A stretch of 32,000 bases of DNA from Candidatus Methylomirabilis oxygeniifera (GTDB taxonomy: Bacteria > Methylomirabilota > Methylomirabilia > Methylomirabilales > Methylomirabilaceae). The stretch is taken from positions 90,001 through 122,000 of the forward strand of contig FP565575.1 in assembly GCA_000091165.1 (NCBI GenBank), written 5' to 3'. Each line of letters starts with the position of its first letter. Within the stretch, counting starts at the first letter, position 1. Positions 373-25,931 of this stretch are shown piece by piece. The notes under the pieces were generated by a model that was not told where the DNA came from, ran no database searches, and saw only the letters and a program-made list of their open reading frames with translations. The translations under genes were made by a program, and so were the position numbers.

Positions 373-516
373 ACGTGTAGGTATCCTTGATCTGCTCATC
401 ACATTGCGGAAAAAATAGTGTGCAGCAGTTAGGCCTTTCGACTGAAGACTGAAGGAGAACCACCTAACAGCCTTCAGCCTATCGACCTTCTGCCTTCTGT
501 GGGGGCGGCGCACGGT

Positions 517-662
517 ATCGGTGGTGGGGGCTGTTACGTGAGGTGGGTGTAATTTCACACACACCGACGTGCCTCTGATGGTTTCCCGGCATCGAATCGG
601 CCGCAAATGCTTGAATAACCAGACGATTGGCAGATTGGGCAGCGGCTGGAATAGTCCTTGCA
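517..662 (+). promoter_or_regulatory. Sigma-54 regulatory module, copy A: conserved upstream block ending in the -24/-12 element TGGAAT-agtcc-TTGCA (647-662)
   Basis: GG/GC spacing fits the sigma-54 consensus TGGCAC-N5-TTGCW. The element lies ~95 nt upstream of the kinase ATG. The whole 146-bp block is ~77% identical by hand alignment, with one 2-nt indel, to 17329-17476. It contains GGTGT-N10-ACACC (inverted repeat) at ~543-562. Confidence 0.6.
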
Positions 663-687: not shown

Positions 688-744
688 TCCCCGCTCCCCC
701 CAGCGGCTTGAGTCCTGGCACTTAGGCGCGAAGGGGAGCGGGGA
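688..744 (+). promoter_or_regulatory. 5' leader stem-loop of the kinase operon (12-bp perfect stem)
   Basis: TCCCCGCTCCCC (688-699) is the exact reverse complement of GGGGAGCGGGGA (733-744), with a ~33-nt loop. It ends 12 nt before ATG 757. The only purine-rich SD-like stretch (AAGGGGAG) sits inside the 3' arm. Confidence 0.4.
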
Positions 745-756
745 CCCTCACCACTC

Positions 757-2226
757 ATGCAGATCAGACGGAAGATCGAACTCGCCTTTGGCGTGATTCT
801 ATGCCTGCTGCTTCTCACCGCAGGGCAAGGATTGTGGATGTTCATCCACACAAAATCCGCGCTTGGCGAATTGCGTCAGGCGTTTTCTGATGTTCTGCTC
901 CTTGATGATCTGAAGGTGTTGATCTACCGACAGGCGAAAGAGATCCCGGACTACCTGACCGGACACGATCCCGATGCCAAAGAGGAATTTCGGAGTTATG
1001 CGGCGCAGATTGCGATGCGATTTCACGAGAGCGACAGGTTAGCCGGTACGCCCGTACAGGCGCGCTACCTTGGGGATCTCCGGCGGGCCTACGCCGCGCA
1101 TGCCCGTTTAGCGGATCGCATCTTCCGAGCCTATGACAGCAAACAGTACCGACGCGCCCTTGGCCTGATGGAGCATGATGTGGAGAACATTGCGCTCCCC
1201 GCGCTCGATCAGGCCGTCGCGTCCCTTCATCGGGCGCTGTATGCCTCGTCCTTCGAGCGTGTTATGGCGCAGGCTCAGTCGTTCGAACGAACGGCCCAGA
1301 TGGTGAGTCTCCTCGCCGTACTGACCACCTTTGGGGCCGGGCTCTTGATCTTCCTATGGCTGTCCCGCGGATTGGTCCGTCCGATCAATGCGCTGGTGGA
1401 GGCGACCCGTGAAGTCGGACAGGGGAATCTCGACATCCAAGGCCTGCCGGTCTCACGTGACGAGATTGGCGAGCTCGCGTCTGCATTCTCAGGTATGGTG
1501 CAGCGGATCAAGCATTTTCAAACCCAAATCGTCGAGACCGAACAGATGGCGTCCATCGGCGCCACGGCGGTCGCGGTGGCCCATGGGCTGCGGAACCCCC
1601 TTGCAAGCGTTCGAGCCTTGGCACAAGTCGCTCTTGTTGAGCATGAATCGTTCCCGGCTGTCAATGAGAGCCTTCACGAGATCATTGCTGAGGTCGATCG
1701 GCTGAATGCGCGCATCAGCCATCTGCTGACCTTTGCGGTCCCTGCCCGGTTGCACCCCGTGTCGGCAGATCTCAATGACGTGATTGAGCGCGTCGTCGCC
1801 GATTTCCAGCAGATCAAGCCGCAGCAGGTCGTCTTCGCCCTCCACCTTGACCCCGGATTGCCTTCCGTGCAACTCGATACGGTGCACATGAAGGAGGTGC
1901 TTCGAGAAATCGTCCTGAACGCCCTTGAGGCGATGCCGGACGGCGGCGACGTCCGCGTGGCAACGAAAAGGGGTGAGGGGCCGGAGGGGCGGCCCATACT
2001 GATACTGGAGGTAGCCGATACGGGTCGCGGCATCGCTGTCGAGGCGTTGCCGCACGTATTCGAACCGTTCTACACCACCCGTGCGGACGGAACGGGGCTC
2101 GGCCTGTCGATTGTCCGACGGCTTGTCGAGCAGCAAGGCGGAACGGTGGCGGTCGAAAGCCATCCTGGTGCGGGAGCTTGCGTGCGCCTGACCTTTCCAC
2201 TCCACGAACCCGGCGAGAGGATGTAG
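757..2226 (+). CDS. Membrane sensor histidine kinase (periplasmic helical sensor - HAMP - HisKA - HATPase)
   Basis: 489 aa. TM1 LAFGVILCLLLLTAG, then a ~150-aa extracytoplasmic region and TM2 LLAVLTTFGAGLLIFLWL. HAMP (RPINALVEATREV...EIGELASAF), H-box AHGLRNPL, N-box LNALEAM, G1 DTGRGI, G2 GTGLGLSI. Confidence 0.9.
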   Translation: MQIRRKIELAFGVILCLLLLTAGQGLWMFIHTKSALGELRQAFSDVLLLDDLKVLIYRQAKEIPDYLTGHDPDAKEEFRSYAAQIAMRFHESDRLAGTPVQARYLGDLRRAYAAHARLADRIFRAYDSKQYRRALGLMEHDVENIALPALDQAVASLHRALYASSFERVMAQAQSFERTAQMVSLLAVLTTFGAGLLIFLWLSRGLVRPINALVEATREVGQGNLDIQGLPVSRDEIGELASAFSGMVQRIKHFQTQIVETEQMASIGATAVAVAHGLRNPLASVRALAQVALVEHESFPAVNESLHEIIAEVDRLNARISHLLTFAVPARLHPVSADLNDVIERVVADFQQIKPQQVVFALHLDPGLPSVQLDTVHMKEVLREIVLNALEAMPDGGDVRVATKRGEGPEGRPILILEVADTGRGIAVEALPHVFEPFYTTRADGTGLGLSIVRRLVEQQGGTVAVESHPGAGACVRLTFPLHEPGERM

Positions 2227-2229
2227 GCC

Positions 2230-3606
2230 ATGGCGTTGAGCGTGCTGATTGTGGAGGATGAACGGAGTCTTGCGAAATCGATCGCGACTTTTTTGACCAG
2301 AAAGGGGCACAGTGTGGCGACGGCCGAGGATGGGGAACAGGGTTGGCAGCAGGCGCAGCAGCTCGACCCGCAGTTTGTCATCCTCGACTCGCGACTGCCA
2401 AGGATGGCCGGTATCGATCTCCTTCGAAAGGTCCGACAGATGAATCCGGCGACCGTGGTGATGATGACCACCGCCTATGGCACCGTCAATGACGCGGTAG
2501 AGGCAATGAAACTCGGCGCCTTCGACTATCTGGAGAAGCCGGTCGATATGGAGCGGCTGCAGATGATCCTGGAGCGAGCCGAAGAGCACTTTCGTCTCCG
2601 GCAAGAAATCGCCTACTACCGGGAGCGAGAGAGGCCGATCCTTGTGGGTCAGTCGCCGACGATCCAGAGGGTGTTCGAGAAATTTGACCAGCTCGCCACC
2701 CTGGGACGAACCGCCTCAATGCCCACCATCCTCCTGTTGGGCGAGACCGGCACGGGGAAGGGCGTAGTCGCTCGCCTGCTCCATGAACGGAGCGACCGTC
2801 GCGACAAGCCCTTTGTTGAGGTCAATTCCCTGGCGCTTCCGCCGACCTTGATCGAGGCGGAACTGTTCGGATACGAGCGCGGAGCCTTTACCGATGCGAA
2901 GACGTCCAGAATCGGTCTGTTTGAAGCGGCCGAGGGAGGGACCCTCTTCCTTGATGAGATCGGCGATCTCCCTTTACCCCTGCAGGGTAAGCTGCTGGCG
3001 GCGATCGAAAAAAAGATCATCCGGCGGATCGGAAGCGTGATCGATCGGAAGGTCGATGTCTGGATCATCACGGCGACCAATCGGGATCTCGACGCGTGCA
3101 TCAAAGACGGCACCTTCCGGGCCGACCTCTTTTACCGAATTTCCGGCATGACGATTCCACTTCCGCCGCTCCGTGACCGCGGGGACGACATCCTGTTGCT
3201 GGCACGGTATTTCGCGCGGACCGCGAGTAAGACCTATGGCAAACCGGAACCCACGATCGGCGAAGAGGCCGCCGAGGCGCTACGCCGCTATCACTGGCCC
3301 GGTAATGTTCGTGAGCTGTCACACGCCGTCGAGCAAGCGGTTCTGTGGGCGGCAGGGGAGACGTTGCACCCGGAGGATTTTCCGTTTGTGCGGACCGGCG
3401 TTGCAGTGCAGGTGGCGGATGCCTCCGGCGAAGAGGACAATGAGCATCATCACTGGAATCTCCATGAGATGGAGAAACGCCTGATCGAGAAGGCCCTGCG
3501 GCACACCGACGGCAACATTTCTCAAGCGGCCAGGCTGCTCGGCATTACGCGGGATATCCTCCGATACCGCATCGAGAAGTACCGCGGCCTCTCGTCTTCC
3601 CACTAA
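2230..3606 (+). CDS. Sigma-54-dependent response regulator (NtrC family enhancer-binding protein)
   Basis: 458 aa, starting 3 nt after the kinase stop. Receiver domain (LIVEDE...ILDSRLP). AAA+ core with Walker A GETGTGKG, sigma-54 contact loop GAFTDA (variant of GAFTGA, nt 2881-2898) and Walker B LFLDEIG. C-terminal Fis-type HTH ISQAARLLGITRDILRYRIEKY. Confidence 0.92.
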   Translation: MALSVLIVEDERSLAKSIATFLTRKGHSVATAEDGEQGWQQAQQLDPQFVILDSRLPRMAGIDLLRKVRQMNPATVVMMTTAYGTVNDAVEAMKLGAFDYLEKPVDMERLQMILERAEEHFRLRQEIAYYRERERPILVGQSPTIQRVFEKFDQLATLGRTASMPTILLLGETGTGKGVVARLLHERSDRRDKPFVEVNSLALPPTLIEAELFGYERGAFTDAKTSRIGLFEAAEGGTLFLDEIGDLPLPLQGKLLAAIEKKIIRRIGSVIDRKVDVWIITATNRDLDACIKDGTFRADLFYRISGMTIPLPPLRDRGDDILLLARYFARTASKTYGKPEPTIGEEAAEALRRYHWPGNVRELSHAVEQAVLWAAGETLHPEDFPFVRTGVAVQVADASGEEDNEHHHWNLHEMEKRLIEKALRHTDGNISQAARLLGITRDILRYRIEKYRGLSSSH

Positions 3607-3699
3607 AAACTCCGACTCGATCAGGGGTCAGGTATGACGTGTTGATGTTGTCAATCGCCATCCCTTTCGCGCGGCCTCACAGAGCTACTGCACCGTCGT

Positions 3700-3954
3700 C
3701 TAAAGATCCGGATCTCGCGTCATCTCCTCAACCAACCGCTGCAGTCCCCGACTCAATCCCCCCGGATCGTGCCCCAACATCCCGGCCATCGCGTGCATCG
3801 TCAGGTCGCCCACTTCTCGCCCGACTCCCGCCTGGAGCAACGGCAGATAGTGTTGACAATCGGCCGCATCGCGAAAGATCGGCCGGCCCTGATTGCCACG
3901 GCTGACCACGTGGGAGCTGGCGCCCGGATCATGGATGCGGGGCTTCCTCGCCAT
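3700..3954 (-). pseudogene. Internally deleted remnant of a Y1 (IS200/RayT-type, REP-associated) transposase
   Basis: MARKPRIHDPGASSHVVSRGNQGRPIFRDAADCQHYLPLLQ matches the conserved N-terminus of this family (MAR.PR..PG..YHV..RGN....F.D..D). Only ~85 codons remain and the catalytic core is absent. The last ~35 aa (AGMLGHDPGGLSRGLQRLVEEMTRDPDL) resemble the DnaA-like HTH tail some members carry. Confidence 0.6.
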
Positions 3955-4012
3955 GTCGATCATGTCCGCCATGCCATGTCACTTGTCAATACGTCACGCC
4001 TGACCCATTTAC

Positions 4013-4104
4013 ACACAATCAACGAATTGGCGGGTGAACCGTGGAGCATCTCAGGGCTGGCGTGGCGATTGCTCATTCCTCAGGTTGACGGATCTGAGGT
4101 GGCA
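4013..4104. repeat. Direct repeat R1 (~92 bp), partner at 5053-5139
   Basis: CACACAATCAACGAATTGGCGGGTGAACCGTGGAGCATCTCAG...GGCGTGGCGATTGCT...GGATCTGAGGTGGCA aligns to 5053-5139. I count ~9 mismatches and one 6-nt indel (~90% identity). The two copies bracket the vapBC module. Confidence 0.75.
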
Positions 4105-4150
4105 TGATCGAGGCTAGCGTCCTGAAAATATTCGCTGTATAGTGACTGAT

Positions 4151-4195
4151 GTCATTTCGGCCAAGCCCGCATAGCGGGCGCGAGCCGGAATCCAG
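4151..4195 (+). repeat. REP-like palindromic element (GTCATT.CGG...CCGGAATCCAG family)
   Basis: GTCATTTCGGCCAAGCCCGCATAGCGGGCGCGAGCCGGAATCCAG contains a CCCGC-ata-GCGGG hairpin. It shares both termini with the element at 5683-5734. It lies just downstream of the vapC stop. Confidence 0.4.
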
Positions 4196-4232
4196 GAAAT
4201 AACAGGAGTTCTGGATCTGGGCGGGCTGTGCG

Positions 4233-4637
4233 CTATACCGTCCAGACAGAGAGCCCGATATGGCGCGTCATGAGGTCAAAGTGCTTATCGCAGTGAAGAA
4301 GGTGGCACCGGTAGCTCAAGGCGACAGCGGCAATAAGATGATCCGTCGATGGGACGGACAAACCCTCTCGTCGAATTGTATGAGCAATCCCGTAGGCTGA
4401 TCTCCAGACTGACTCAGTAATCGGGAATCGTTGTAGTGCTTCCAAGTCCTCGCGCAACTCTCGGTACTCCGCCTCCGTCCGTGTGCCGGCGGCGAGCTCC
4501 AGAATGATCATTTCACACGTGGCTACCCGCCCCTCAGTCAACAAGCGACGGACTTCTTGTCGAACAGCGGGATCTCCAGAGGGCCGCAGGGCATGAATCC
4601 AGGCTGAGGTATCGATCAGAACCCATCCATCAGCCAT
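4233..4637 (-). CDS. vapC: PIN-domain ribonuclease toxin VapC
   Basis: 134 aa. N-terminal LIDTSAWIHAL with the first conserved acidic residue, and C-terminal LLHCDKHFDLM. It overlaps the upstream antitoxin gene by 8 nt, the classic type II TA arrangement. Confidence 0.85.
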   Translation of the reverse strand: MADGWVLIDTSAWIHALRPSGDPAVRQEVRRLLTEGRVATCEMIILELAAGTRTEAEYRELREDLEALQRFPITESVWRSAYGIAHTIRREGLSVPSTDHLIAAVALSYRCHLLHCDKHFDLMTRHIGLSVWTV

Positions 4638-4833
4638 CGGCGCGAAGCTTGGCGAGTTTCCTCGGAGTTAAGTCCAGAGGAAAGTGGCCAAGTTTTCCAA
4701 GGAGACGCTCGATCCGCTGCTGGCGGATAAGGGCCTCCAGAGAGCGGTGGATCACCTCCTTCTTCGTCTTGGCCTTGGTAAGCACCTGCGCCTGCTTGAG
4801 GAGCGTGTTGTCGATCTCTAGCGTTGTTCTCAT
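4630..4833 (-). CDS. vapB: Type II antitoxin VapB
   Basis: MRTTLEIDNTLLKQAQVLTKAKTKKEVIHRSLEALIRQQ is the typical VapB-antitoxin N-terminus. ATG 4833 has AGGAGG 7 nt upstream. The ORF-track start at 4854 lacks an SD. Confidence 0.8.
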   Translation of the reverse strand: MRTTLEIDNTLLKQAQVLTKAKTKKEVIHRSLEALIRQQRIERLLGKLGHFPLDLTPRKLAKLRADG

Positions 4834-4855
4834 TGTGGAACCTCCTGTATGCATA

Positions 4856-4884
4856 AAACTAGACCGATCTTTATGCTATGTCAA
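4856..4884 (-). promoter_or_regulatory. Putative sigma-70 promoter of vapBC
   Basis: On the minus strand: TTGACA (4884-4879), 17 nt, TAGTTT (4861-4856), followed by AGGAGG and the vapB ATG. Confidence 0.5.
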
Positions 4885-5052
4885 GTTTCTTCGGTCTGGT
4901 TTGTCGGGACTTGAGCCTGCCGCCTGGCTGTCGGAGGAAGGGCCCTGAGGCAGTACGCCACGTGGGCTTTCTCCCAATACCAACCGTATAGCGCAAGAGG
5001 GGAGCGGAGATGCGCCCATTGTCCGTCATCTCCCTCGACGGCCCACGTAAGC

Positions 5053-5139
5053 CACACAATCAACGAGTTGGTGGGTGAACCATGGAACATCTCAGATCTG
5101 GCGTGGCGATTGCTCCAGGTAGATGGATCTGAAGTGGCA
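5053..5139. repeat. Direct repeat R2 (~87 bp), partner at 4013-4104
   Basis: See R1. This copy abuts the integrase remnant. Confidence 0.75.
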
Positions 5140-5393
5140 GCCCCCGCGGCAAGCCACGGGGAATGAACCCCAGGTGGATTCAAGAGTTGCTGGGCCATCG
5201 GGATGTGAGCACGACGATGATCTACACGCACGTGTTGAACCGGGGCGGACGGGAGGTCAATAGCCCCGCTGGTCGACTCGGCTGCAAACTGAAGAGACCA
5301 TTGGAGTCTGCCGGAATAGCTGACAATTTCTTGTTAAGTATGGAAAAAGCTTGTAGGATTTGTAGCAATCGCAAAACCAACCAGTGGAAATAA
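5133..5393 (+). pseudogene. C-terminal remnant of a tyrosine recombinase of integron-integrase type
   Basis: ...[40 protein letters not shown] carries the catalytic-Tyr box [14 protein letters not shown] and the downstream LNRGG.xV.SP tail characteristic of IntI-type integrases. An in-frame stop lies at 5130-5132. The upstream ~270 codons of a normal integrase are absent. Confidence 0.7.
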
Positions 5394-5682
5394 GCTGGCC
5401 AATCTACCCAATAGTTCGACCCTGACGTTCGAAGCTCACAACGGGTGACAACCAGCGTCTTGTGAGGTACTCCCAAGCATCAAGACAAGAATCGGGGTTG
5501 GTGAAAGGAGGATTGAGCCGCAAAGCAACCGTCCGAGCATCTCCTCAGCGCACTCTTCTTCCGGGCCAACGACTGCATAGATCGATGAGCCTCTCCTCAG
5601 TGCCGAATCCTCAATATCCGCGCCAATTCTCCCGCCTTTCTCATGACCTGTTCTACATAACGACATTAGTCTCAGGCAATTT

Positions 5683-5768
5683 GTCATTCCGGGCTTGACC
5701 CCGGATCGGGTCCGGGGAAGGTTCCGGAATCCAGTACATTTCTAGATTCCCGCTTTCGCGGGAATGAC
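5683..5768 (+). repeat. Composite REP/MITE-like palindromic element
   Basis: It starts GTCATTCC and ends GGAATGAC (terminal inverted repeat). Internal hairpins are CCCGGATCGGGTCCGGGG and CCCGCTTTCGCGGG. The left half is a second copy of the 4151-4195 family. Confidence 0.45.
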
Positions 5769-5979
5769 GTCCGTTGTTACGACTTACGACGCTATGAATA
5801 ATTCAATGTTCGCTATGACCCGTTATCGACCTATCTACTGGTAAGCAGCTCTGGAACTCTGCGACTCTATCAGCTTTCCCACCTTCCCAGAAACCGTGTA
5901 GGTCGCGGGAATACCGCATGTGCCGTGGGCGCGCCCATGGGCATGAAGGCCAGAGGCCAGACCCCCGCGCGCTGCGGTC

Positions 5980-6069
5980 GTCATTGCGAGCGACCGAAGG
6001 GAGTGCGGCAATCTCATCGTAGTTGCCCCGAACGACTGTGAGATTGCTTCGGCGTCGCCTCGCAATGAC
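5980..6069. repeat. Imperfect inverted repeat / hairpin element (GTCATTGCGAG...GAGATTGC family)
   Basis: GTCATTGCGAGCGACCGAAGGGAGTGCGGCAATCTC (5980-6015) pairs imperfectly with GAGATTGCTTCGGCGTCGCCTCGCAATGAC (6040-6069). The 84-aa minus-strand ORF across it is probably just its translation. Confidence 0.5.
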
Positions 6070-6288
6070 ACGGGGGACTTTCTGAGCAATACCCCATGCG
6101 GCGACGCCGCACCACGGCGGATGAAAATGCTGGCTGAGGGAGAGTGGTGCCCGAGATGTCGGGTTACGCTGCGCTAACCTGACCTACGGCTGCTCCCGCG
6201 AGGGTCCACCTGCCATGCTGTGCCGCCGACAGAGGCGACGGTGTGAGTTCAACTGCAATATTCTGGTTGAAAGTCTGAGAAAGCGCCC

Positions 6289-6480
6289 GTCTGCGTGATA
6301 ATCCACACGACTCTCGTCGTGTATGCGAAAGTTCGCCCATTCACTCCTCGTAAGGTCACACGCACGGTTCCATCAGCATCGTGCCGATCGTTCGTTTTCT
6401 CAGCTGAGACAAGGGTTTACGAGCGCTTCTGCGACTACGACGATAGCCGTCAAAGGCGTGGCATCCCGCTTGCTAATCAT
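6289..6480 (+). promoter_or_regulatory. mxaF control region: conserved block with candidate enhancer site and sigma-54 promoter TGGCAT-cccgc-TTGCT (6459-6474)
   Basis: It aligns colinearly with 17501-17694. The blocks GTCTGCGTGATAATCCACA, CACACGCACGGTT and the -24/-12 element TGGCATCCCGCTTGCT are identical. TGCGAAAGTTCGCCCATTCACTCC (6324-6347, near-palindrome GCGAAAGTTCGC) differs from its partner at one position (G vs T). The promoter is ~170 nt upstream of ATG 6644. Confidence 0.65.
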
Positions 6481-10242: not shown

Positions 10243-11262
10243 ATGTCAGACGAAACGCTACTGGCTGACTGGGCGGGATATGCCAGGAATCTCGAGGCGG
10301 CACTGCACCGATGCATTCTGGGATTGGATCGTCCGATCAGGCTGATCCTGGCAGCGGTCTTTGCGCGGGGCCATGTTATGCTGGAGGGTGATGTCGGCGT
10401 GGGGAAGACGACGCTGCTCCGCGCCGTGGCGAGGGGTCTTGGCGGTGCCTTCGAGCGGATCGAAGGCACCATCGACCTGATGCCCACCGATCTCATCTAC
10501 TACAGCCATGTCGACTGGGATGGCCGACCCCGCATCGATCCAGGATGTCTCCTGAAGCACGGTGAAGAGCTCTCGATCTTCTTTTTCAACGAGGTCAACC
10601 GAGCGCGACCACAGGTTCACTCTCTGCTGCTTCGGATCATGGCCGAGCGTTCGGTGACCGCTTTCAATCGAGAGTATCGGTTCCCTCACCTGCTGGTCTT
10701 TGCCGACCGGAATCGGCTGGAAAAGGAGGAGACGTTCGAGATCCCTTCGGCCGCGCGGGATCGTTTCTTGATGGAGCTGTCGATCGAGATCCCGGAGGAT
10801 CCATCTATCCTGCGATCACTCATGATCGAGCCGAGATTCCACGATATCGAGACTCTCATTGAAGCAATCCCGCCGGCCATCGTCCCGTTCCGACAGCTTT
10901 ACGAAGTCTCTGCCGTGATCCAGCGGACCATTCATGTCAGTCCCGACCTCGAGCGCTATGCGCTTGAGCTGTGGTGTGCGACACGCGATCCGGGCGCATA
11001 CGGGATCAGGCTTGAGGGGGTCGAGATGGACCGGCTGCTGCTCGCGGGCGCAAGCCCGCGCGGGATGAGCATGATGCTGCGCGCAGCCCGCGTGATGGCC
11101 TGGCTTTTCGACCGTTCGATGGTGGTGCCGGAGGATATACAGGAAGTCTTCATCGAAACCGTGGCCCACCGCCTCTGTTTTCAGCCGATCTATGAGATCC
11201 GGCGATCACAACTTGCACGCGAACTGCTCTCGAAGATCATCCGGACGATTGCAGCTCCATGA
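10243..11262 (+). CDS. mxaR: MoxR-type AAA+ ATPase MxaR
   Basis: 339 aa. Walker A GDVGVGKTT, Walker B-like IFFFNEVNRA, and a MoxR-like C-terminal region. Position is as in mxaRSACKL. Confidence 0.9.
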   Translation: MSDETLLADWAGYARNLEAALHRCILGLDRPIRLILAAVFARGHVMLEGDVGVGKTTLLRAVARGLGGAFERIEGTIDLMPTDLIYYSHVDWDGRPRIDPGCLLKHGEELSIFFFNEVNRARPQVHSLLLRIMAERSVTAFNREYRFPHLLVFADRNRLEKEETFEIPSAARDRFLMELSIEIPEDPSILRSLMIEPRFHDIETLIEAIPPAIVPFRQLYEVSAVIQRTIHVSPDLERYALELWCATRDPGAYGIRLEGVEMDRLLLAGASPRGMSMMLRAARVMAWLFDRSMVVPEDIQEVFIETVAHRLCFQPIYEIRRSQLARELLSKIIRTIAAP

Positions 11263-16307: not shown

Positions 16308-17309
16308 ATGTGTCGGCGTTCACGTCTGTTCCGTCTTGCATCGGCGGCGCTTCTGTTTGGCGTCGGCACCACGGCATCGGTACGGGCCGAGTATGCCTAC
16401 ATTACCAACCAGGGCGACGACAGCGTCTCAGTCGTGAATATCGAGAAAGGGGAAGTCATCGCGACCATCGCGGTAGCCGATGCGCCTGTGGGTGTGGCGA
16501 CCACACCGGACGGTACGCATCTGTACATCACGCACCCCGAGGCGGGACTCATCTCGGAAATCGATACCGTGACACGAACGGTAGTAAAGACCATCGACAC
16601 CGGGGGGCAGCCATTTGGTATTGCGGTTGACGACACCGCCCCGGTCGCCGGCAACAACGCGCAGACCCGCCGGTTACTCTTTGTCACTGATTGGAGCCGC
16701 AACGCCGTTATGACTGTAGACCCGGTGAGAGGAGTGGTGATCGATCTGATCCATGCTGGAAAGTCGCCCGCCGGGATCGCCCTCGACCGAAGGGCGCGGC
16801 GCGTATTTGTCGCTAACCGCGAGAGCAATACGCTCACGGTGCTGGATGCGGATGTGCCGCGCAGGTATGCGGACATACCGACAGGCCGGGCGCCTTTCGC
16901 TGTGGCGCTGGTGCCCAACGGGGAGCGCGTGTACGTCGGCAATGTGCAGAGCGGGGAACTGACCGTGATTGACGCGAAAGCGCTCGATGTGGTTGCAACG
17001 GTCAAGGTCGGCCGCTTTCCTTACGGCATCGCCGTTACGCCTGACGGCGCGCGCGTCGTCGTTGCCAACCAGCAGGACCACAACATCACGATAGTGGATG
17101 CCTTGTCGCTGCGTACGGTCGGCAACATCCGTGTCGGTCGCCATCCCGACGGGGTGGATATCACCGGTGACGGCAGCCATGCACTGATCGCAAACTGGTT
17201 CGATGACTCGATTTCCATTATCGATCTCAGCACACTGAAGGAGCGAACGCGAGTCAAGGCTGGAAAGGGGTGCCGCGCCTTTGGGTCATTTATCGTGCGT
17301 AATCGATAG
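16308..17309 (+). CDS. Secreted seven-bladed YVTN beta-propeller protein (PQQ-catabolism-associated type), paralogue 1
   Basis: Signal peptide ...TTASVRA-EY. Seven repeats of the pattern YVTN/.....V.VID........I.VG..P.G.A..PDG..(V)YV. It starts 3 nt after the mxaD stop. Paralogue at 22338-23297. Confidence 0.8.
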   Translation: MCRRSRLFRLASAALLFGVGTTASVRAEYAYITNQGDDSVSVVNIEKGEVIATIAVADAPVGVATTPDGTHLYITHPEAGLISEIDTVTRTVVKTIDTGGQPFGIAVDDTAPVAGNNAQTRRLLFVTDWSRNAVMTVDPVRGVVIDLIHAGKSPAGIALDRRARRVFVANRESNTLTVLDADVPRRYADIPTGRAPFAVALVPNGERVYVGNVQSGELTVIDAKALDVVATVKVGRFPYGIAVTPDGARVVVANQQDHNITIVDALSLRTVGNIRVGRHPDGVDITGDGSHALIANWFDDSISIIDLSTLKERTRVKAGKGCRAFGSFIVRNR

Positions 17310-17328
17310 AGTGGACGCGACGCATGGG

Positions 17329-17476
17329 ATCGGTGGTGGGGGCTATTGCATGAGGCAGGTGTAATTCCACACACACCCCGACGTTCCTCAAGCGGTATCC
17401 CGACATCGAATGGGCTGTAAGTGCTTGAATAACCTGATGATCGGAGCCTGCCGCAGCAGTTGGCATAGTCATTGCT
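17329..17476 (+). promoter_or_regulatory. Sigma-54 regulatory module, copy B, ending in TGGCAT-agtca-TTGCT (17461-17476)
   Basis: 148 bp, ~77% identical to 517-662 (the kinase upstream region). It has a near-consensus -24/-12 element and lies ~340 nt upstream of the xoxF ATG, immediately upstream of the second promoter block. Confidence 0.6.
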
Positions 17477-17500
17477 TAATTAGCAAACTTAGGAGAGCCT

Positions 17501-17694
17501 GTCTGCGTGATAATCCACAGGCCTACGGTCGAGGTGTGCGAAATTTCGCCCATTCACTCCATCGCCCAGCCACACGCACGGTTGTGCGCTCAACGTGTCG
17601 ATCGTCAGTTTCCCCAGCCGCGACAAGACTTTGCCTGCGCTCCTGCAACTGCATTGATGGCCATCGAGGGTGTGGCATCCCGCTTGCTGATACC
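17501..17694 (+). promoter_or_regulatory. xoxF proximal control region: palindrome GCGAAATTTCGC (17538-17549) plus sigma-54 promoter TGGCAT-cccgc-TTGCT (17673-17688)
   Basis: It is colinear with the mxaF upstream block 6289-6480 (see that feature). The -24/-12 element is identical to the mxaF one. The palindrome lies ~135 bp upstream of GG(-24). Confidence 0.65.
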
Positions 17695-17813
17695 CAGTCG
17701 CTTGTGACAGTCCGGATACTCGTCTCGCCTACTTTGGGGAAGGGAGTGGAAGGACAGATCGGGGCGATAGTTTTCAGTAAGCGGTTCAACACACAGAGGA
17801 GGGAGTGCAGATC

Positions 17814-19718
17814 ATGGGGAAGCCGTTATCCGGTTCTACGATGGCAGGCATGATCGCCGGCGCGCTCATGCTGGCTATCGCTTCTGGCAGTGCGCTCGCC
17901 AATGAAGAGATCGTTCGGGCGAGCAAAAATCCTGATCTGTGGCCCGCGCCGGGCCGGGATCTGGCCATGACGCGTCATAGCCCGCTCAAAGACATCAATA
18001 CCGCCAACGTCGGGAAGCTGCAGATGATGTGGTCGCAATCCACCGGTGCGTTGCGTGGCCATCAGGGTCAGCCGATCGTGGTCGAGGTGGCTGGAACGCC
18101 GATGATGTTTTTTGTGAGTCCCTGGCCGAATATCGTGCAGGCGTTGGACCTGTCCGATCCTGATCATCCGAAGCAGGTGTGGAACTACAAGAAGAAAACC
18201 GACCGTGATGAGTTGGCGGTGACTCGCGCGTGTTGCGATACGATTAACCGGGGCCTGAACTATGCCGACGGCAAGGTGGTCTTTCATACCCTCGACGGAT
18301 ATGTCATCGCGCTGGACGCCAAGACCGGCAAAGAGATTTGGACGGTCAAGCATGCCTGGTCGGATAAGGGTGAAACGATTACCGGCCCGACGCTGATCGC
18401 CGAGAATAAGGTCATCATCGGGTTCGGCGGCGACGAGTTCGCCGCGCGCGGCCGGGTGACCGCGTATGACCTGAAGACCGGCAAGCAGGTGTGGAACTGC
18501 CACAGCACCGGGTCCGACAAGGATGTGTGCCTGACCCCGGAGACCAACAAGGCCAATCCGCATTACGGGACGTACGGCAAGAACCTCGGCATGATCACCT
18601 ATCCCAATGACGAGTGGAAGATCGGCGGTGGCGCGCCCTGGGAATGGTTTACCTATGACCCGGAGTTGAGGCTCGTGTACGTGCCGACGGGCAACCCCGG
18701 GCACTGGAGTCCATCCTATCGGTGCGGTGAAACCGGCGCAAACCTGACTCACGAAAAGTGTAACCAATACGACCCCGAGTTGCGCAGCGGCAGATGGGAC
18801 AACAAGTGGGCGATGACGATCTTCGCCAGAAAGATCGATACCGGCGAGGCGGTATGGGCGTACCAGATGACCACCTTCGACCAGTGGGACTACGACGGCG
18901 TCAACGAACCCGTCCTGGTGGACATGAAGGTCGACGGCAAAATGCGCAAGACGCTGGTCCACTTCGACCGTAACGGGTTTGCCTATGTGCTTGACCGTGC
19001 CGATGGGACTCTGTTGCGCGCGCATAAGTTTTTCCCCCTCAACTGGGCCGAGAAGGTCGACCTCAAGACCGGCCGTCCGGTGAAGATCAAGGAGCATTCG
19101 CCCTTCGCTCGTCATGTCAGCACGCAGGTCTGCCCGTCTTCGCTTGGCGCCAAGAACCAACAACCGATTGCGATCGATCCCAAAGAACCGCACATCGCCT
19201 ATGTGGCGACCAACTGGTGGTGCATGGAATACGAGCCGCAAGAGCGCACCCACACCCAGCAGGGCATGCTCTATGTCTTTGCGAACGTCTTCACGTATCC
19301 GATCGAGAAGGGTGTCGCGAGCAAGGTGCAGAAGTTCAACGTGCTGACCGGCGAGACCGAGTGGGCTATTCCGGATGCCTATCCGGACTGGGGCGGCATG
19401 CTGACGACCGATGGCGACCTACTGTTCTACGGCAGCCTGAGCGGAGATTTTCGCGCGGTCGATCGGAAGTCCGGCAAGGTCCTGTGGAGCCGTAAACTGG
19501 GCTCCGGCATCATCGGCAACCCGATCACGTACAAGATCAAGGGCAAGCAGTACGTGTCGGTATTGGCCGGTATCGGCGGCTGGATCGGTCTGCCGGTGAC
19601 GGCCGAGCTCGACTTTGACGACAAGTATGGAGCCATCGGCGCCACCGCTATGGCCAAGCTGACCGGGCTCGATAAGATTCCGCAGGGTGGCGTGCTCTAC
19701 ACCTTCCGTATCGATTGA
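17814..19718 (+). CDS. xoxF: PQQ-dependent methanol dehydrogenase, lanthanide-type (XoxF), copy 1
   Basis: GGAGGG SD lies 10 nt before ATG 17814. The GTG at 17805 is too close to the SD. Signal peptide ...ASGSALA-NEE, vicinal Cys TRACCDTINRG. Active-site FDQWDYDGVNE (D-Y-D at 18888-18896) carries the additional Asp diagnostic of Ln-dependent XoxF. No small-subunit gene follows. Confidence 0.93.
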   Translation: MGKPLSGSTMAGMIAGALMLAIASGSALANEEIVRASKNPDLWPAPGRDLAMTRHSPLKDINTANVGKLQMMWSQSTGALRGHQGQPIVVEVAGTPMMFFVSPWPNIVQALDLSDPDHPKQVWNYKKKTDRDELAVTRACCDTINRGLNYADGKVVFHTLDGYVIALDAKTGKEIWTVKHAWSDKGETITGPTLIAENKVIIGFGGDEFAARGRVTAYDLKTGKQVWNCHSTGSDKDVCLTPETNKANPHYGTYGKNLGMITYPNDEWKIGGGAPWEWFTYDPELRLVYVPTGNPGHWSPSYRCGETGANLTHEKCNQYDPELRSGRWDNKWAMTIFARKIDTGEAVWAYQMTTFDQWDYDGVNEPVLVDMKVDGKMRKTLVHFDRNGFAYVLDRADGTLLRAHKFFPLNWAEKVDLKTGRPVKIKEHSPFARHVSTQVCPSSLGAKNQQPIAIDPKEPHIAYVATNWWCMEYEPQERTHTQQGMLYVFANVFTYPIEKGVASKVQKFNVLTGETEWAIPDAYPDWGGMLTTDGDLLFYGSLSGDFRAVDRKSGKVLWSRKLGSGIIGNPITYKIKGKQYVSVLAGIGGWIGLPVTAELDFDDKYGAIGATAMAKLTGLDKIPQGGVLYTFRID

Positions 19719-19813
19719 TCGTGTCACGATCCCGAATGCGCTGTCGATCTGATGGTTGCCGGCGGGTGGCATCAGTCCACCCGCCGGTGCCGTCGTATGT
19801 GAGGTCGATTCGT

Positions 19814-21532
19814 ATGTCGTTGTTGAAGCAGTGCGGAACCGTACTCCTCGCCTGCGCGCTCAGCGTCACGGTCGCGCCTGCGTTTGTAATCGCCGACATC
19901 GGGCATGATGGGGGCGCGCCCAGCGTCAACGTTGCGCCTGCCTCTGCAACCGAGGGCAGCGCGTTGCTGCGGGTGTGCGCCGATCCCGGAAATATGCCGC
20001 TGTCGAATAATAAGGGAGAAGGCTTCCAGAACAAGATCGCAGAGATCCTCGCGCAGGCGATGGGCGCGCAGCTTACGTATTACTACCGACCGTATCTGGA
20101 GCGAGGCCTCACCAGCCAAACCGTGGATGCCGATCGGTGTGACATGCTGATGGATATACCGTCGGGCGAGGAACGTCTGCTGACCACCAAGCCGGTCTAT
20201 CGCAGTACCTTTGTGCTGGTCTACCGCAACGACAAAGGATACGCCTTCAAGGGTCTGGACGACCCCAGATTACTCAACGACCTCAAGGTCGGCGTCTTCC
20301 AGCATTCCGCGGCGCGGCAGGTATTGCAGGAGCGCGGCCTCGCACGCGGCAACACCATTGTGCATGCCGTCAGCTACGATACCGATGTCAACCCCGAACG
20401 GCAGCCGTCACGGCAGATCCGACAGGTGATCGACGGCCGACTGGATGTAGCTGCCATCTGGGGGCCGATGGCCGGCTGGTACAAGGCCGTCGAAGGCGCG
20501 CCGCTGACGATCCTGCCAATGAACCTCATGGATGATGCCACGCCATTGGAGTTTGAGTTGAGCGTGGGCATGCGGAGGGGCGCCGAGGAGTTGAAGACCA
20601 GGATCGAACAGGCACTGGTGCGCGAGCAGGCGCGTATCCGCCGGACATTGGAGGAGTACGGGGTGCCGCTGGTCGAATGCGCGCGGTGTCTGGTGTCGGG
20701 CACGCTGCCTTCGCATGGGCCTTACACGCCGCCCGCGCCCGTTACGGCAACGTCCCCACCGGCGGCGGCGCCCGACATGACGCAGGTGGCCTTGCAGACC
20801 GACGCCGCGCTGGCCGGCGGCGGGACGCTCGATGAGGAGTTGCACTACGCAATCCTGGCCAGTCAGCCCAAGCGGGCCGACTACCTGATCGCGCGTGGTG
20901 CCGATGTTAACGGCCGGGATGCGCAGAACCAGACGCCGCTGATGACGGCGGTCATGCACGGTCACGAACCGGTAGTCGCTCTCTTGCTGAACCGCAAGGC
21001 CGATCCGAACAGGGCGGACAACGACGGCTGGACCGCCCTGATGCGCGCCGTCCAGCGCGACGACCCTACCATGGTGCGCCTGCTGGCCGCACATGGCGCC
21101 GACCCCGAAGCGATCAATCGGAACGGCATGAGCGCGCTCACCATGGCGGCGCTGCACGGCAAGAGCCTAGCGGCAGCCGCCCTGCTGGAAAGCGGGGCAA
21201 AGGTTGACAGTGCGATCGGGACGGCGCGCTACACGCCGCTGATGATTTCGGTGTTCTCCGGCACGCAGCCTGTCGCACAGGCACTGTTGCGATATGGCGC
21301 GCAGGTCAACGCCCGTAACGGCGGCGGTCTGACGGCGTTGATGATCGCCGCGGCCTCTAATCGGCCAGAGATGGTTGCGCTGTTGCTCGGCGCAGGCGCG
21401 GATGCCGCACTCAAGGACGCAGAGGGGAGGACCGCGCTGGCGCTGGCGCGAGAGCGCGATGCCGCCACTGTCGTCAGCCTGCTCACGGGAAGGTCGGCCG
21501 TAGGCAGTGCGGCGAAGCCTGCTGCGCAGTAG
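19814..21532 (+). CDS. xoxJ: XoxJ/MxaJ-like periplasmic binding-fold domain fused to a C-terminal ankyrin-repeat domain
   Basis: ATG 19814 has GAGG 9 nt upstream. Signal peptide MSLLKQCGTVLLACALSVTVAPA. LLRVCADPGNMPLSNNKGEGFQNKIA...VYRSTFVLVYRND aligns with MxaJ (8449-9342). A Pro/Ala linker (~20700-20777) follows. Then come ~6 ankyrin repeats (~20831-21486), e.g. QTPLMTAVMHGHEPVVALLLNRKADPN and GLTALMIAAASNRPEMVALLLGAGADAA. Confidence 0.85.
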   Translation: MSLLKQCGTVLLACALSVTVAPAFVIADIGHDGGAPSVNVAPASATEGSALLRVCADPGNMPLSNNKGEGFQNKIAEILAQAMGAQLTYYYRPYLERGLTSQTVDADRCDMLMDIPSGEERLLTTKPVYRSTFVLVYRNDKGYAFKGLDDPRLLNDLKVGVFQHSAARQVLQERGLARGNTIVHAVSYDTDVNPERQPSRQIRQVIDGRLDVAAIWGPMAGWYKAVEGAPLTILPMNLMDDATPLEFELSVGMRRGAEELKTRIEQALVREQARIRRTLEEYGVPLVECARCLVSGTLPSHGPYTPPAPVTATSPPAAAPDMTQVALQTDAALAGGGTLDEELHYAILASQPKRADYLIARGADVNGRDAQNQTPLMTAVMHGHEPVVALLLNRKADPNRADNDGWTALMRAVQRDDPTMVRLLAAHGADPEAINRNGMSALTMAALHGKSLAAAALLESGAKVDSAIGTARYTPLMISVFSGTQPVAQALLRYGAQVNARNGGGLTALMIAAASNRPEMVALLLGAGADAALKDAEGRTALALARERDAATVVSLLTGRSAVGSAAKPAAQ

Positions 21533-21600
21533 CGAGTCTGGAAACCTGGGACGATTTTCTGAGCATAGCCCATGTGTCACCGGTACACCACGGCGCATGA

Positions 21601-21690
21601 AAACCCCCTTAATCCCCCTTTACGAAAGGGGGAGGCATTGAGGCGTATCAGGAATATCCCCCCCTTTACGAAAGGGGGGTCAGGGGGGTT
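21601..21690. repeat. Two tandem copies of a GC-hairpin unit (CCCCCTTTACGAAAGGGGG)
   Basis: Hairpin 1 is at 21614-21632 and hairpin 2 at 21659-21679 (CCCCCCTTTACGAAAGGGGGG). They lie in the 200-bp gap between xoxJ-ank and xoxG. No clean U-tract follows. Confidence 0.55.
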
Positions 21691-23328: not shown

Positions 23329-25674
23329 ATGAGAGTGAGGGTGCTCTGGTACGTGGCGATAGGGTTGATCTGGCTCGTGGCTGGGATGATGCCGCGCGCG
23401 TGGGCGGAAACGGATCAGTCGGAACCGGGGGAAAGTCCCCTCAAGGCCTTTGAGCTCCCGGCGGTGGAGGTGATCGAGCATACCCCTCTGTCGGCTCTCG
23501 GTATTCCCATCGGGAAATACCCGGGGAACGTGCAGGAGATCACGTCTGAGGAGATCGAGAGTCAGAACCCGCTTGATATCTCGGAAATGTTCTACCGGAA
23601 CCTCAGCTCGGTCAATATCAATGCTGCTCAGAACAACCCTTGGCAGAATGATGTGACCTACCGTGGTTTTCTCGCCTCGCCCCTGACCGGCAGCCCCATC
23701 GGGCTGTCCGTGTATCTGGACGGCATGCGCTTCAACGACGGATTCGGGGAAACGATGAACTGGGACCTGACTCCCCAGTCCGCCATCGCGGAAATCGACG
23801 TGATTCCCGGTTCCAACCCTGTCTTCGGTTTGAATACTCTCGGTGGCGCGCTTAACATCCGCACCAAGCGCGGCTTCGATTTGCAGGGTACGGAAGTCGA
23901 AGCGTCTGGAGGATCCTTCGGACGCTGGGCTGTGGAGGCGGAGCACGGCGCTGTGCACGGTCCGTTTGACTTGTATCTGACATTCAACACCCTGGACGAA
24001 AGCGGCTGGCGCGAGCACTCGCCGAGTGAGTTGCGACAATTATTCAGTAGAATCGGGTGGAAAACGGAGCGCACTGACCTCAACCTCAACTACATCTGGG
24101 CCGACAACGATCTCATCGGCAACGGCTTCGTCCCGGAGAGTACACTGGCGAGAGACCGTGATGCCGTCCATACCTTCCCTGATCGGACCGGGAATCGTAT
24201 GCACCTGCTCAACCTGCGCGGGAGTCGTCGGATCACGGATGCCCTGCTGCTCTCTGGGAACGGGTTCTATCGCTACTACAAGCGTAAGACCCTGAATGGG
24301 GATGCCGAGGTCGGCTGTGTGGATGACGCCACCGGGGCGGGGGTCGTCGACGCCGGCGGCCGTCCGCTGCACCTTGGGCTGTGCGAGGGTTCGGCCGTCG
24401 GATTCTTTGATGAGGATGGCAATCCGCTGGCCGGAGCACTGGAGCGCGAAGCCGAGGGTGAGGACCGGACGACGAGAACCCGCACCCATGACTTTGGCGG
24501 AACGTTCCAACTCTCGCATAGCGGCGCCATCATGGGCCGTACCAACCGGCTGACGGTTGGATTTGCCTTCGATCGCCACCAAAGCCATTATAACCAGCGC
24601 GAGGCCGAATCCGAGCTGGTGCCGGACGGCAACAGTGTGGGCACGGAACGCGAGGGACCCTTCGAGACGGAGGTCAACGTCGGCACCCGGCAGGATAATG
24701 CCGGTTTCTATATTACCAACACCTTCGATCTCGCCGAGCGTCTGGCGCTGACGTTGTCCGGGCGGTATCAGCATGTGGACATCAACATACGCGACCGGTC
24801 TGGCGAGAACGACGATCTTAACGGCCACCATACATTCGAGCGCTTCAGTCCTGCCGTAGGATTGACGTTTCAAGCGCTGAAGAACGCCACGCTCTTCTTC
24901 TCCTATAGCGAGGGCTTTCGCGCCCCCACTCCGGCGGAACTGACGTGCGCCGATGAGAACGATCCGTGCAATCTGCCGAATGCGTTTGTCGCCGATCCGC
25001 CGCTCAACAAGGTCGTCGCCCGCACGTACGAGTTCGGCGCGCGCGGCCGTCTGCCGATCGGAAATGGGGTGCGGTGGAACGCCGGCTTCTTCCGCACCGA
25101 CTTAAGCAACGACATCCTGTTTACCGTCGTTGAAACCGGCGGGGCCGGCTTTTTCCAGAATGTTGACGCGACGCGCCGCCAGGGCGTCGAGGTCGGTGTA
25201 CAGGGTCGGTGGAAGCGATTGAAATACTTTGGAAACTACGCGTACGTTGATGCCACCTACCAGTCCGACGTGACGCTTGCGAGCGTGACGGACCCCGGCG
25301 GCGTGCGGGTCAAGGATGGCGATGTGATTCCCGGCATCCCAAAGCACAATGCCAAGGTTGGGGCAGAGTATGCCCTGCTGGACAATCTCTGGATCGGCGG
25401 CAACGTGATCGCCGTGTCCGGCAACTATCTCCGCGGCGACGACGGCAACAACCAAAGCAAGACGGATGCCTACGCGATACTGAATCTTCACGCCCGCTAC
25501 GTGCCGATCAAGAACCTGGAGATCTGGACGCGCATCGACAACGTGACCGATACCGACTACGAGACGGCAGGCACGCTCAATTTTAATGCCTTCGGCAGCC
25601 CCATCGCCGTTGAGCGATTCGTCGCCCCGGGATCGCCCGTTGCCGGCTGGGTCGGTGTCAAGTTACGCTTCTGA
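23329..25674 (+). CDS. TonB-dependent outer-membrane receptor (full length), last gene of the xoxF operon
   Basis: GGAGGG SD, ATG 31 nt after the YVTN stop. Signal peptide ...MMPRAWA-ET, TonB-box-like ELPAVEVIE, plug domain (VQEITSEEIESQNPLDISEMF...TYRGF). A long beta-barrel ends in VGVKLRF*. Confidence 0.9.
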   Translation: MRVRVLWYVAIGLIWLVAGMMPRAWAETDQSEPGESPLKAFELPAVEVIEHTPLSALGIPIGKYPGNVQEITSEEIESQNPLDISEMFYRNLSSVNINAAQNNPWQNDVTYRGFLASPLTGSPIGLSVYLDGMRFNDGFGETMNWDLTPQSAIAEIDVIPGSNPVFGLNTLGGALNIRTKRGFDLQGTEVEASGGSFGRWAVEAEHGAVHGPFDLYLTFNTLDESGWREHSPSELRQLFSRIGWKTERTDLNLNYIWADNDLIGNGFVPESTLARDRDAVHTFPDRTGNRMHLLNLRGSRRITDALLLSGNGFYRYYKRKTLNGDAEVGCVDDATGAGVVDAGGRPLHLGLCEGSAVGFFDEDGNPLAGALEREAEGEDRTTRTRTHDFGGTFQLSHSGAIMGRTNRLTVGFAFDRHQSHYNQREAESELVPDGNSVGTEREGPFETEVNVGTRQDNAGFYITNTFDLAERLALTLSGRYQHVDINIRDRSGENDDLNGHHTFERFSPAVGLTFQALKNATLFFSYSEGFRAPTPAELTCADENDPCNLPNAFVADPPLNKVVARTYEFGARGRLPIGNGVRWNAGFFRTDLSNDILFTVVETGGAGFFQNVDATRRQGVEVGVQGRWKRLKYFGNYAYVDATYQSDVTLASVTDPGGVRVKDGDVIPGIPKHNAKVGAEYALLDNLWIGGNVIAVSGNYLRGDDGNNQSKTDAYAILNLHARYVPIKNLEIWTRIDNVTDTDYETAGTLNFNAFGSPIAVERFVAPGSPVAGWVGVKLRF

Positions 25675-25871: not shown

Positions 25872-25931
25872 CAATTCGTCAATCCCACCCAGCCGATCAA
25901 TGTTCCGGTCGGTGCCGGTTACCGATTCTAA
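25872..25931 (+). pseudogene. 20-codon 3' remnant of a TonB-dependent receptor gene
   Basis: QFVNPTQPINVPVGAGYRF* compares with the end of the receptor at 1-372 (RFLNPAQPINVLVGASYRF*). The DNA of 25878-25931 matches 319-372 at roughly 43 of 54 positions by hand count. An in-frame stop lies immediately upstream at 25869-25871. Confidence 0.55.

Follow-up and report, generated by a model that had tools for sequence, protein, structure and literature searches.

The methanol dehydrogenase cluster of Candidatus Methylomirabilis oxyfera poses the question of how many promoters serve the gene xoxF1 and which regulator acts on them. We analyzed a stretch of 32,000 nucleotides from contig FP565575.1 (positions 90,001 to 122,000, hereafter the window) that contains this cluster in a gene order agreeing with the published description, in which locus tags Damo_0112-122 stand for mxa, Damo_0124 for XoxF1 and Damo_0134 for XoxF2 (PMC6094997). 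Gene layout was established with Pfam and NCBIfam. Two different blocks of intergenic DNA follow each other upstream of xoxF1 (17814-19718, plus strand, start codon ATG 17814 or GTG 17805), which encodes a pyrroloquinoline quinone (PQQ) methanol dehydrogenase (Pfam PQQ), and each block resembles the region in front of another operon of the cluster. Judged from the sequence, xoxF1 appears to lie behind two complete tandem sigma-54 promoter cassettes, and a single regulator encoded in the cluster would serve all four cassettes found there. We put the probability of this reading at about 0.6.

Predicted promoter cassettes in the methanol dehydrogenase cluster

The first block, module A, occurs as A1 (499-662, plus strand), the promoter cassette of the kinase/regulator operon, and as A2 (17311-17476, plus strand), which is distal to xoxF1 and begins one base after the stop codon of a beta-propeller gene (16308-17309). 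Over 166 columns, 78.3% of the positions are identical between the two copies (repeat families D5 and D9; blastn, E=1e-31), and despite about 22% divergence they are separated by just two small indels, one of 2 nt and one of 1 nt. Module B is represented by B1 (6282-6477, plus strand), the mxaF promoter cassette (mxaF ATG 6533), and by its copy B2 (17494-17691, plus strand), proximal to xoxF1, with 75.3% identity over 198 columns (blastn, E=4e-32, repeat families D6 and D14). Each of the four units carries a -24/-12 element on the plus strand: TGGAATagtccTTGCA at 647-662 in A1, with one mismatch to the consensus and a predicted start at about 673, TGGCATagtcaTTGCT at 17461-17476 in A2, which matches the consensus exactly and predicts a start at about 17487, and TGGCATcccgcTTGCT in both B units, at 6459-6474 in B1 (predicted start about 6485) and at 17673-17688 in B2 (predicted start about 17699), where the two copies read identically as GTGGCATCCCGCTTGCT. 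The predicted starts of the promoters P_A2 and P_B2 are about 212 nt apart and have the same direction, both toward xoxF1.

Much of this had been seen in a preliminary description of the same DNA. It correctly gave about 77% identity for 517-662 and 17329-17476, the homology starting some 18 nt further upstream, and it placed the end elements of A1 and A2 where we find them. It likewise recognized that xoxF1 is preceded by a copy of the mxaF block with a -24/-12 element of its own, that mxaF has module B and no module A, and that xoxF2 (ATG 30804) has neither module; the region upstream of xoxF2 also lacks a -24/-12 element and the upstream motif described below. The spacing between A2 and B2, previously put at about 25 bp, is 17 nt.

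A sigma-54 element was taken to require GG and GC at a distance of exactly 10 nt within TGGCAC-N5-TTGCW, located upstream of the gene and on its coding strand. The exact string TGGCAY-N5-TTGCW is found three times on both strands of the 32 kb (0.05 matches expected), namely in B1, A2 and B2, and all three matches are on the plus strand, intergenic and upstream of the relevant genes. When up to one mismatch is allowed, the window contains eight matches compared to 1.3 expected.

The modules have a second feature in common. A palindrome-like motif of 12 bp, GYGWARKTYCRC (ideal form GTGAAATTTCAC), fits both GTGTAATTYCAC, the core of the inverted repeat of module A, and GCGAAAKTTCGC, the palindrome of module B. 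It has exactly four sites in the window (547, 6325, 17359 and 17538; 0.25 expected), one per module: GTGTAATTTCAC at 547-558 in A1, GCGAAAGTTCGC at 6325-6336 in B1, GTGTAATTCCAC at 17359-17370 in A2 and the perfect palindrome GCGAAATTTCGC at 17538-17549 in B2. The distance from motif to -24 amounts to 100-102 nt in the A units (100 nt in A1, 102 nt in A2) and to 134-135 nt in the B units, within the range of roughly 80-200 nt expected for activator sites of sigma-54 promoters. In the latter, a second possible site of the form GTG-N6-CAC, GTGATAATCCAC, is situated about 30 bp upstream (6295-6306 and 17507-17518) and is fully conserved; the B units carry two to three sites about 30 bp apart. In the classical NtrC arrangement, two activator sites lie about three helical turns from each other. 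The longer inverted repeat GGTGT-N10-ACACC, formerly ascribed to both modules, is present and exact in A1 (546-565) and A2 (17358-17377) but absent from module B, which carries other palindromes.

Conservation of the predicted elements differs in strength between the modules. At the predicted elements B1 and B2 differ in one of 35 positions and elsewhere in 48 of 163 (Fisher p=2.4e-4), which argues that these elements are under constraint. The corresponding figures for A1 and A2 are given below, where the reading is weighed. Sites resembling those for integration host factor (IHF), with one mismatch each, are present on the minus strand of A1 (604-616) and A2 (17418-17430); they were discarded as evidence because they do not recur in the B units or in orthologs and are too weak.

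Conservation in related lineages and probable origin of the cassettes

Loci of related organisms were collected by three routes. Three of them (L016, L017 and L018) belong to another lineage and stem from members of the 90% XoxF1 cluster, two (L021 and L022) were reached via MxaF with 91% identity and three (L104-L106) via a search with the regulator. In the first group no mxa genes are shown, and the regulator, beta-propeller and kinase operon stands directly before xoxF1; in L016 and L018 a toxin-antitoxin pair, unlike the VapBC pair of the window, lies between the regulator operon and xoxF1. In the other five loci the same type of operon is directly followed by mxaF. The regulators of the related lineages are 62-64% and the kinases 52-54% identical to those of the window.

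A BLAST search of modules A and B against 1.59 Mb of related and other loci yielded no match at E up to 0.01, indicating that intergenic DNA is saturated between the lineages. What is conserved between them are short motifs only, with the elements kept at aligned positions and the flanking DNA scrambled. The regulator-operon promoters of L016, L017 and L104 contain an exact TGGCAC-N5-TTGCT at the position aligned to that of A1, with the motif GTGAARTTCCMC some 66 nt ahead of it, as well as a leader hairpin rich in GC. The mxaF orthologs of L021, L022 and L104 are preceded by an exact TGGCATctcacTTGCT at the aligned position and by two motif sites 32 bp apart, and the string GTGTGGCATC.C.CTTGCT is common to the mxaF promoters of both lineages. 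Since these elements survive at aligned positions, there is good comparative evidence that units of the A1 and B1 type are real sigma-54 promoters. The xoxF1 orthologs (at least 90% identical) of L016-L018 have TGGCCCgattcCTGCT, degenerate, with GG-N10-GC in register and identical in the three loci, and a motif at -145. The second site of the B units corresponds in position to the site in these xoxF1 promoters, and CTGC precedes both. Throughout the eight related loci, every motif site is located 66-155 nt upstream of a -24/-12 element.

Such promoters seem to be a local feature of mxaF. Among 77 other mxaF loci that served as a negative control, none has a -24/-12 element within 450 nt upstream of the gene, suggesting that sigma-54 control of mxaF is a local acquisition. 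A search of genome contigs with MxaG returned relatives of at most 48% identity and no Methylomirabilis, and a search of metagenome contigs with MxaF returned 80 loci, all at most 75% identical and none a close relative. Among sequences with a source name, those nearest to MxaF outside Methylomirabilis come from Methylococcaceae (72-74% identity), whose mxaF genes have no such promoters. The closest XoxF1 relatives outside Methylomirabilis (L019 and L020) are associated with HisKA_3/GerE (LuxR-type) systems and have no -24/-12 element.

The comparison also bears on which copies came first. L017 shows the same succession of TonB-dependent receptor C-terminus (in the window ending at 372), promoter and leader hairpin, and A1 accordingly appears to occupy the ancestral position. 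The mxaF string is shared between the lineages and the related xoxF1 element is a different one, so A2 and B2 are most simply taken as derived copies, of the kinase-operon promoter and the mxaF promoter, respectively, that were set before xoxF1 in the M. oxyfera lineage. Of the ancestral xoxF1 leader, only about the last 30 nt would then survive. The hairpin itself (688-744, plus strand, inverted repeat I1) lies in the untranslated 5' leader of the kinase operon; folded by RNAalifold together with L016, L017 and L104, it comprises 20 predicted pairs, of which three show compensatory changes. It belongs to the ancestral A-type unit and was not copied into A2. Counterparts are found at about 4745-4800 in L016, 190-245 in L017 and 1375-1430 in L104. 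The structure sits just 3' of the predicted start of the kinase/regulator operon and, lacking a U-tail, does not qualify as an intrinsic terminator; it could act as an mRNA-stabilising or regulatory leader.

Traces of rearrangement are evident in several places. The region between regulator and mxaF (3639-5400) contains mobile-element debris, including integrase fragments, namely the two D11 repeats (4012-4074 and 5053-5115, 63 nt, 90% identical) and an open reading frame (ORF; 5163-5393) that ends in a tyrosine-recombinase-like C-terminus (ELLGH...TTMIYTHV), and a VapBC pair (4233-4854) consisting of a PIN toxin gene (4233-4637, minus strand) and an adjoining small ORF (4630-4854, minus strand). 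Further downstream, 25875-25930 is an 80%-identical copy of 316-371, i.e. of the last 19 codons of the TonB-dependent receptor gene and its stop (QFVNPTQPINVPVGAGYRF). This relic sits in the intergenic space 3' of an intact receptor gene that itself ends properly at 25674, and it looks like the remnant of a deleted second receptor gene. A rearrangement scenario based on the beta-propeller gene 5' of A2 was abandoned, as its product is not the ortholog of the beta-propeller protein of the regulator operon in the related lineages (29%, versus 64% to that of the mxa cluster).

Dispersed repeats of other kinds are present as well. A 39-nt repeat (ATACCCCATG...CCACGGCGGATGAAAA, 64-77% identical) occurs at 5911-5949, 6089-6127 and 21565-21603, with two copies upstream of B1 and one between the xoxJ-ankyrin gene and xoxG, and further palindromic repeat-like strings are located at about 5680-5760 and 5980-6070. 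A contig assembled from public reads (L107, Logan SRR22388217) shows 89% DNA identity in its positions 54-2373 to window positions 1867-4178, the end of the kinase gene and the regulator gene, so these reads must include a relative closer to M. oxyfera; a 28-nt piece of the window (6151-6178) recurs at the end of that contig. An N-terminal XoxF1 fragment (P0124) is carried by another Logan contig, of 4,373 nt.

A probable single regulator for four cassettes and the alternatives

The candidate for the activator is encoded behind A1. A sensor histidine kinase with a periplasmic sensor region and HAMP, HisKA and HATPase_c domains (757-2226, plus strand, Pfam) is immediately followed by the gene for an NtrC-family sigma-54 enhancer-binding response regulator (2230-3606, plus strand), in which a receiver domain (REC), an AAA+ sigma-54 interaction domain and a Fis-type helix-turn-helix domain (HTH_8) are arranged in this order. 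Pfam Sigma54_activat matches it at 2.4e-59, in support of the sigma-54 reading given in the preliminary description, and a structure of an NtrC-family transcriptional regulator (4l4u, E=8e-93) matches the whole length of the protein. The loop that contacts sigma-54 reads GAFTDA, a variant that recurs in 101 of its 120 closest homologs. The protein remains below every NCBIfam equivalog cut-off (382 bits versus 714 for AtoC, 380 versus 559 for NtrC) and is therefore an unnamed member of the NtrC family. For residues 1-200 of the kinase, the periplasmic region, no sequence match was obtained in PDB.

Because the modules and the orthologous promoters share the 12-bp motif, one activator for all four cassettes is the simplest reading. 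We propose that the kinase would phosphorylate the regulator, which would then bind all four cassettes and activate sigma-54 RNA polymerase at P_A1, resulting in positive autoregulation, while P_B1 would drive mxaFJGI and the downstream genes. Both P_A2 and P_B2 are predicted to read into xoxF1, with starts near 17487 and 17699. Such a regime would induce mxaF/mxaI and xoxF1 together instead of switching them inversely, would add to the drive on xoxF1 and would leave xoxF2 outside the circuit under separate control. The methanol dehydrogenase purified from M. oxyfera consists of XoxF1 plus MxaI (PMC6094997), and co-induction of mxaF/mxaI and xoxF1 would account for this hybrid enzyme. The sigma-54 reading is well supported for the cluster at large and for P_B2, which is very probably active; activity of P_A2 as a distal promoter is only slightly more likely than not. 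The idea that modules A and B bring different inputs, put forward in the preliminary description, is probably wrong, as both contain the motif also seen in the orthologous promoters. The same description considered a short non-coding transcript from the distal promoter, for which we see no support. The window contains nothing that reaches an Rfam gathering score, and in 17200-17900 Rfam stays silent even at E up to 1; no terminator is predicted between A2 and xoxF1, and folding from the predicted A2 start (17487) to xoxF1 is not unusual (z-score -1.0). A transcript starting at about 17487 would hence cross the B2 enhancer, which corresponds to its positions +20 to +62, and P_B2 and enter xoxF1. 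Likewise, no terminator is predicted after the beta-propeller gene, and read-through from the mxa operon into xoxF1 is possible.

Several points weigh against a single regulator acting on four working promoters. The motif GYGWARKTYCRC was partly derived from the sites that were then counted, so that its specificity (five sites in 1.49 Mb of unrelated loci) and not its presence constitutes evidence; the site at 84-95 in L017 is independent of the derivation. In M. oxyfera the arms of the motif are GTG...CAC in A and GCG...CGC in B, which would suit two activators, the less likely reading. A1 and A2 differ in 3 of 23 positions at the predicted elements compared to 34 of 144 elsewhere (p=0.20), so for the A2 elements intactness is all that can be claimed, and such intactness at about 22% divergence is compatible with neutrality. 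The two tandem sigma-54 promoters of the preliminary description thus stand as two complete promoter-like units, but without significant excess conservation of the elements in A2. A2 is identical over a 504-nt upstream region in six further contigs with identical XoxF1 (L010-L015) and has no sequence-divergent ortholog among the loci compared, where related lineages run xoxF1 from a single unit. The comparison of orthologous loci advocated earlier consequently speaks for the A1-type and B1-type elements, which are kept, and not for A2, whose copies are confined to sequence-identical M. oxyfera. Two Methylacidimicrobium genomes lack a conserved -24/-12 element upstream of xoxF, and rpoN lies outside the 32-kb window.

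A2 may be a working distal promoter, an enhancer in reserve or a relic of duplication. The last of these explanations holds that A2 is a non-functional leftover from the rearrangements that inserted the mxa cluster and that P_B2, possibly with mxa read-through, transcribes xoxF1. Segmental rearrangement is evident from the integrase fragments, VapBC, the repeats between regulator and mxaF and the receptor relic; A2 has neither leader hairpin nor regulator genes downstream, its elements show no significant excess conservation, and related lineages have no A-type unit at xoxF1. On the other hand, the -24/-12 element of A2 is perfect despite the divergence and nearer to the consensus than that of A1, its motif is intact at a spacing 2 nt off that in A1, and the copies are separated by two small indels in 166 nt, although bacterial genomes usually delete dead DNA. 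We therefore consider a relic unlikely, though it deserves to be taken seriously. Less probable still is a role as an additional remote enhancer, in which activator bound at 17359-17370 would loop to P_B2 about 310 nt downstream and the -24/-12 element of A2 would bind polymerase poorly or not at all. Sigma-54 activators are established to act at a distance, A2 and B2 have the same motif, and NtrC-type activators assemble from several sites, as present in the B units; retention of an exact -24/-12 element in A2, with 0.05 expected in the window, would be left unexplained. That the blocks represent a mobile or dispersed repeat or encode an RNA or a small peptide, their promoter-like strings being coincidental, is highly improbable: other short intergenic dispersed repeats do occur in the window (D8, D11, D13), but each block is present there in two copies only, both standing immediately before functionally linked operons and facing the same way as these, terminal inverted repeats were not detected, neither Rfam nor folding points to an RNA, indels of 1-2 nt between the copies break any reading frame, 17300-17830 contains no small ORF of note (indels and ORFs of purely mechanical origin argue against coding), and the motif positions are kept in orthologous promoters of other lineages. 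Two complete cassettes in front of xoxF1, answering to one regulator, hence remain our preferred reading.

Further genes complete the layout of the window. The genes mxaFJGIRS and downstream genes extend from 6533 to about 16300, and xoxF1 is followed by a xoxJ-ankyrin fusion, xoxG, a second beta-propeller gene, genes for a TonB receptor and TonB, two further genes and xoxF2. The product of the fusion gene (19715-21532) joins a periplasmic binding domain resembling XoxJ (SBP_bac_3) to a long stretch of ankyrin repeats, and the fusion is kept beside xoxF in NC10 bacteria (L016, L017), in the distant XoxF1 relatives L019 and L020 and in Methylacidimicrobium (L103, L108). A sigma-54-like string with one mismatch, AGGCATccgtcTTGCT, lies antisense within the coding sequence of the TonB receptor (25456-25471, minus strand) and recurs in L016 (16509-16524) and L017 (about 11200-11215); most likely it is conserved coding sequence only.

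Comparison with known systems

Control of sigma-54 promoters by two-component systems of the NtrC/NtrB type, including autoregulation, is exemplified by the glnAp2-glnLG paradigm. The M. oxyfera system resembles it in combining a HAMP/HisKA kinase with a REC-AAA+-HTH_8 activator and TGGCAC-N5-TTGCW promoters, in having palindromic sites 100-170 nt upstream and in placing the regulator operon itself behind such a promoter. It differs in that the targets are methanol dehydrogenase genes, in the loop sequence GAFTDA instead of GAFTGA and in the motif GYGWARKTYCRC, which is not an NtrC site.

Regulators of the mxa/xox switch include MxcQE, MxbDM and MxaB in Methylorubrum extorquens, MxaY in Methylotuvimicrobium and PedS2/PedR2 in Pseudomonas putida. 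They have in common with the system described here that two-component systems are encoded near, or act on, genes for PQQ-dependent methanol or alcohol dehydrogenases. To our knowledge, the classical switch systems are not sigma-54-dependent. The sole precedent we found for sigma-54 control of methanol dehydrogenase is Methylobacillus flagellatus, in which two sigma-54 regulators, Mfla_0343 and Mfla_1254, are induced by lanthanum (Hemmann et al., 2023, PMC9988556). They adjoin xoxF and a TonB receptor gene, and a sigma-54 promoter has been predicted before xoxF (PMC9988556). The M. oxyfera cluster is similar in having sigma-54 activators beside xoxF and a TonB receptor gene as well as a predicted sigma-54 promoter before xoxF, and a receptor gene next to that of a PepSY-domain protein, PepSY being the domain present in lanpepsy, is seen in L016 and L104. 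It is distinguished by its affiliation with NC10, by the same type of promoter before the calcium-type mxaF and by cassettes that are duplicated and stacked. Two promoters that serve one gene in the same direction are also known from a survey of tandem promoters in E. coli (PMC8830795); unlike these, both units in M. oxyfera are predicted to be activator-dependent sigma-54 promoters and would have been copied whole from two other operons of the cluster. In the searchable literature we found neither an account of the regulation of methanol dehydrogenase genes in NC10 methanotrophs nor a link between Methylomirabilis and sigma-54/rpoN in this context.

The related lineage offers an observation in its own right. 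L016 (1-4608) and L104 (2-1237) encode a second pair of kinase and sigma-54 regulator, followed by a sigma-54-like element, CGGCATagctgTTGCA (L016 1755), and genes for a TonB-dependent receptor and a PepSY-domain protein, a neighbourhood that resembles the lanthanide uptake/lanpepsy genes of M. flagellatus. Outside NC10, the closest homologs of the regulator are verrucomicrobial (54-55% identical, Methylacidimicrobium), and in two Methylacidimicrobium genomes (L103 3803-13583, L108 58-9383) the genes stand in the order TonB receptor, kinase, regulator, xoxF, xoxJ-ankyrin and xoxG, a linkage that M. oxyfera shares. A sigma-54 xoxF promoter common to both phyla was considered and rejected, as the GG-N10-GC candidate in Methylacidimicrobium has AG in the second genome; a conserved string before xoxF rather resembles a sigma-70 promoter, TTGACC-N17-TATCGC. 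In Methylacidiphilum caldifontis (L109), the kinase/regulator pair is encoded away from xoxF.

It is tempting, albeit doubtful, to go further. M. oxyfera may have rewired methanol oxidation by copying whole cassettes, such that one two-component system would autoregulate and jointly induce the calcium-type mxa operon, itself horizontally acquired, and a double-cassette xoxF1; this would replace the usual inverse lanthanide switch and explain the XoxF1-MxaI enzyme, and the regulator family together with the TonB receptor might then represent an ancient xoxF-linked sensing module of NC10 and verrucomicrobial methanotrophs. The kind of system is itself a textbook NtrC-type sigma-54 circuit. What we propose for M. 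oxyfera is a concrete version of it, with one kinase/activator pair, a 12-bp motif, four promoters and their predicted starts. Regulatory change would have come about by duplication of entire enhancer-promoter cassettes, including the capture of a horizontally acquired operon, and the shared control of mxaF/mxaI and xoxF1 would offer a regulatory reason for the existence of the XoxF1-MxaI hybrid enzyme.

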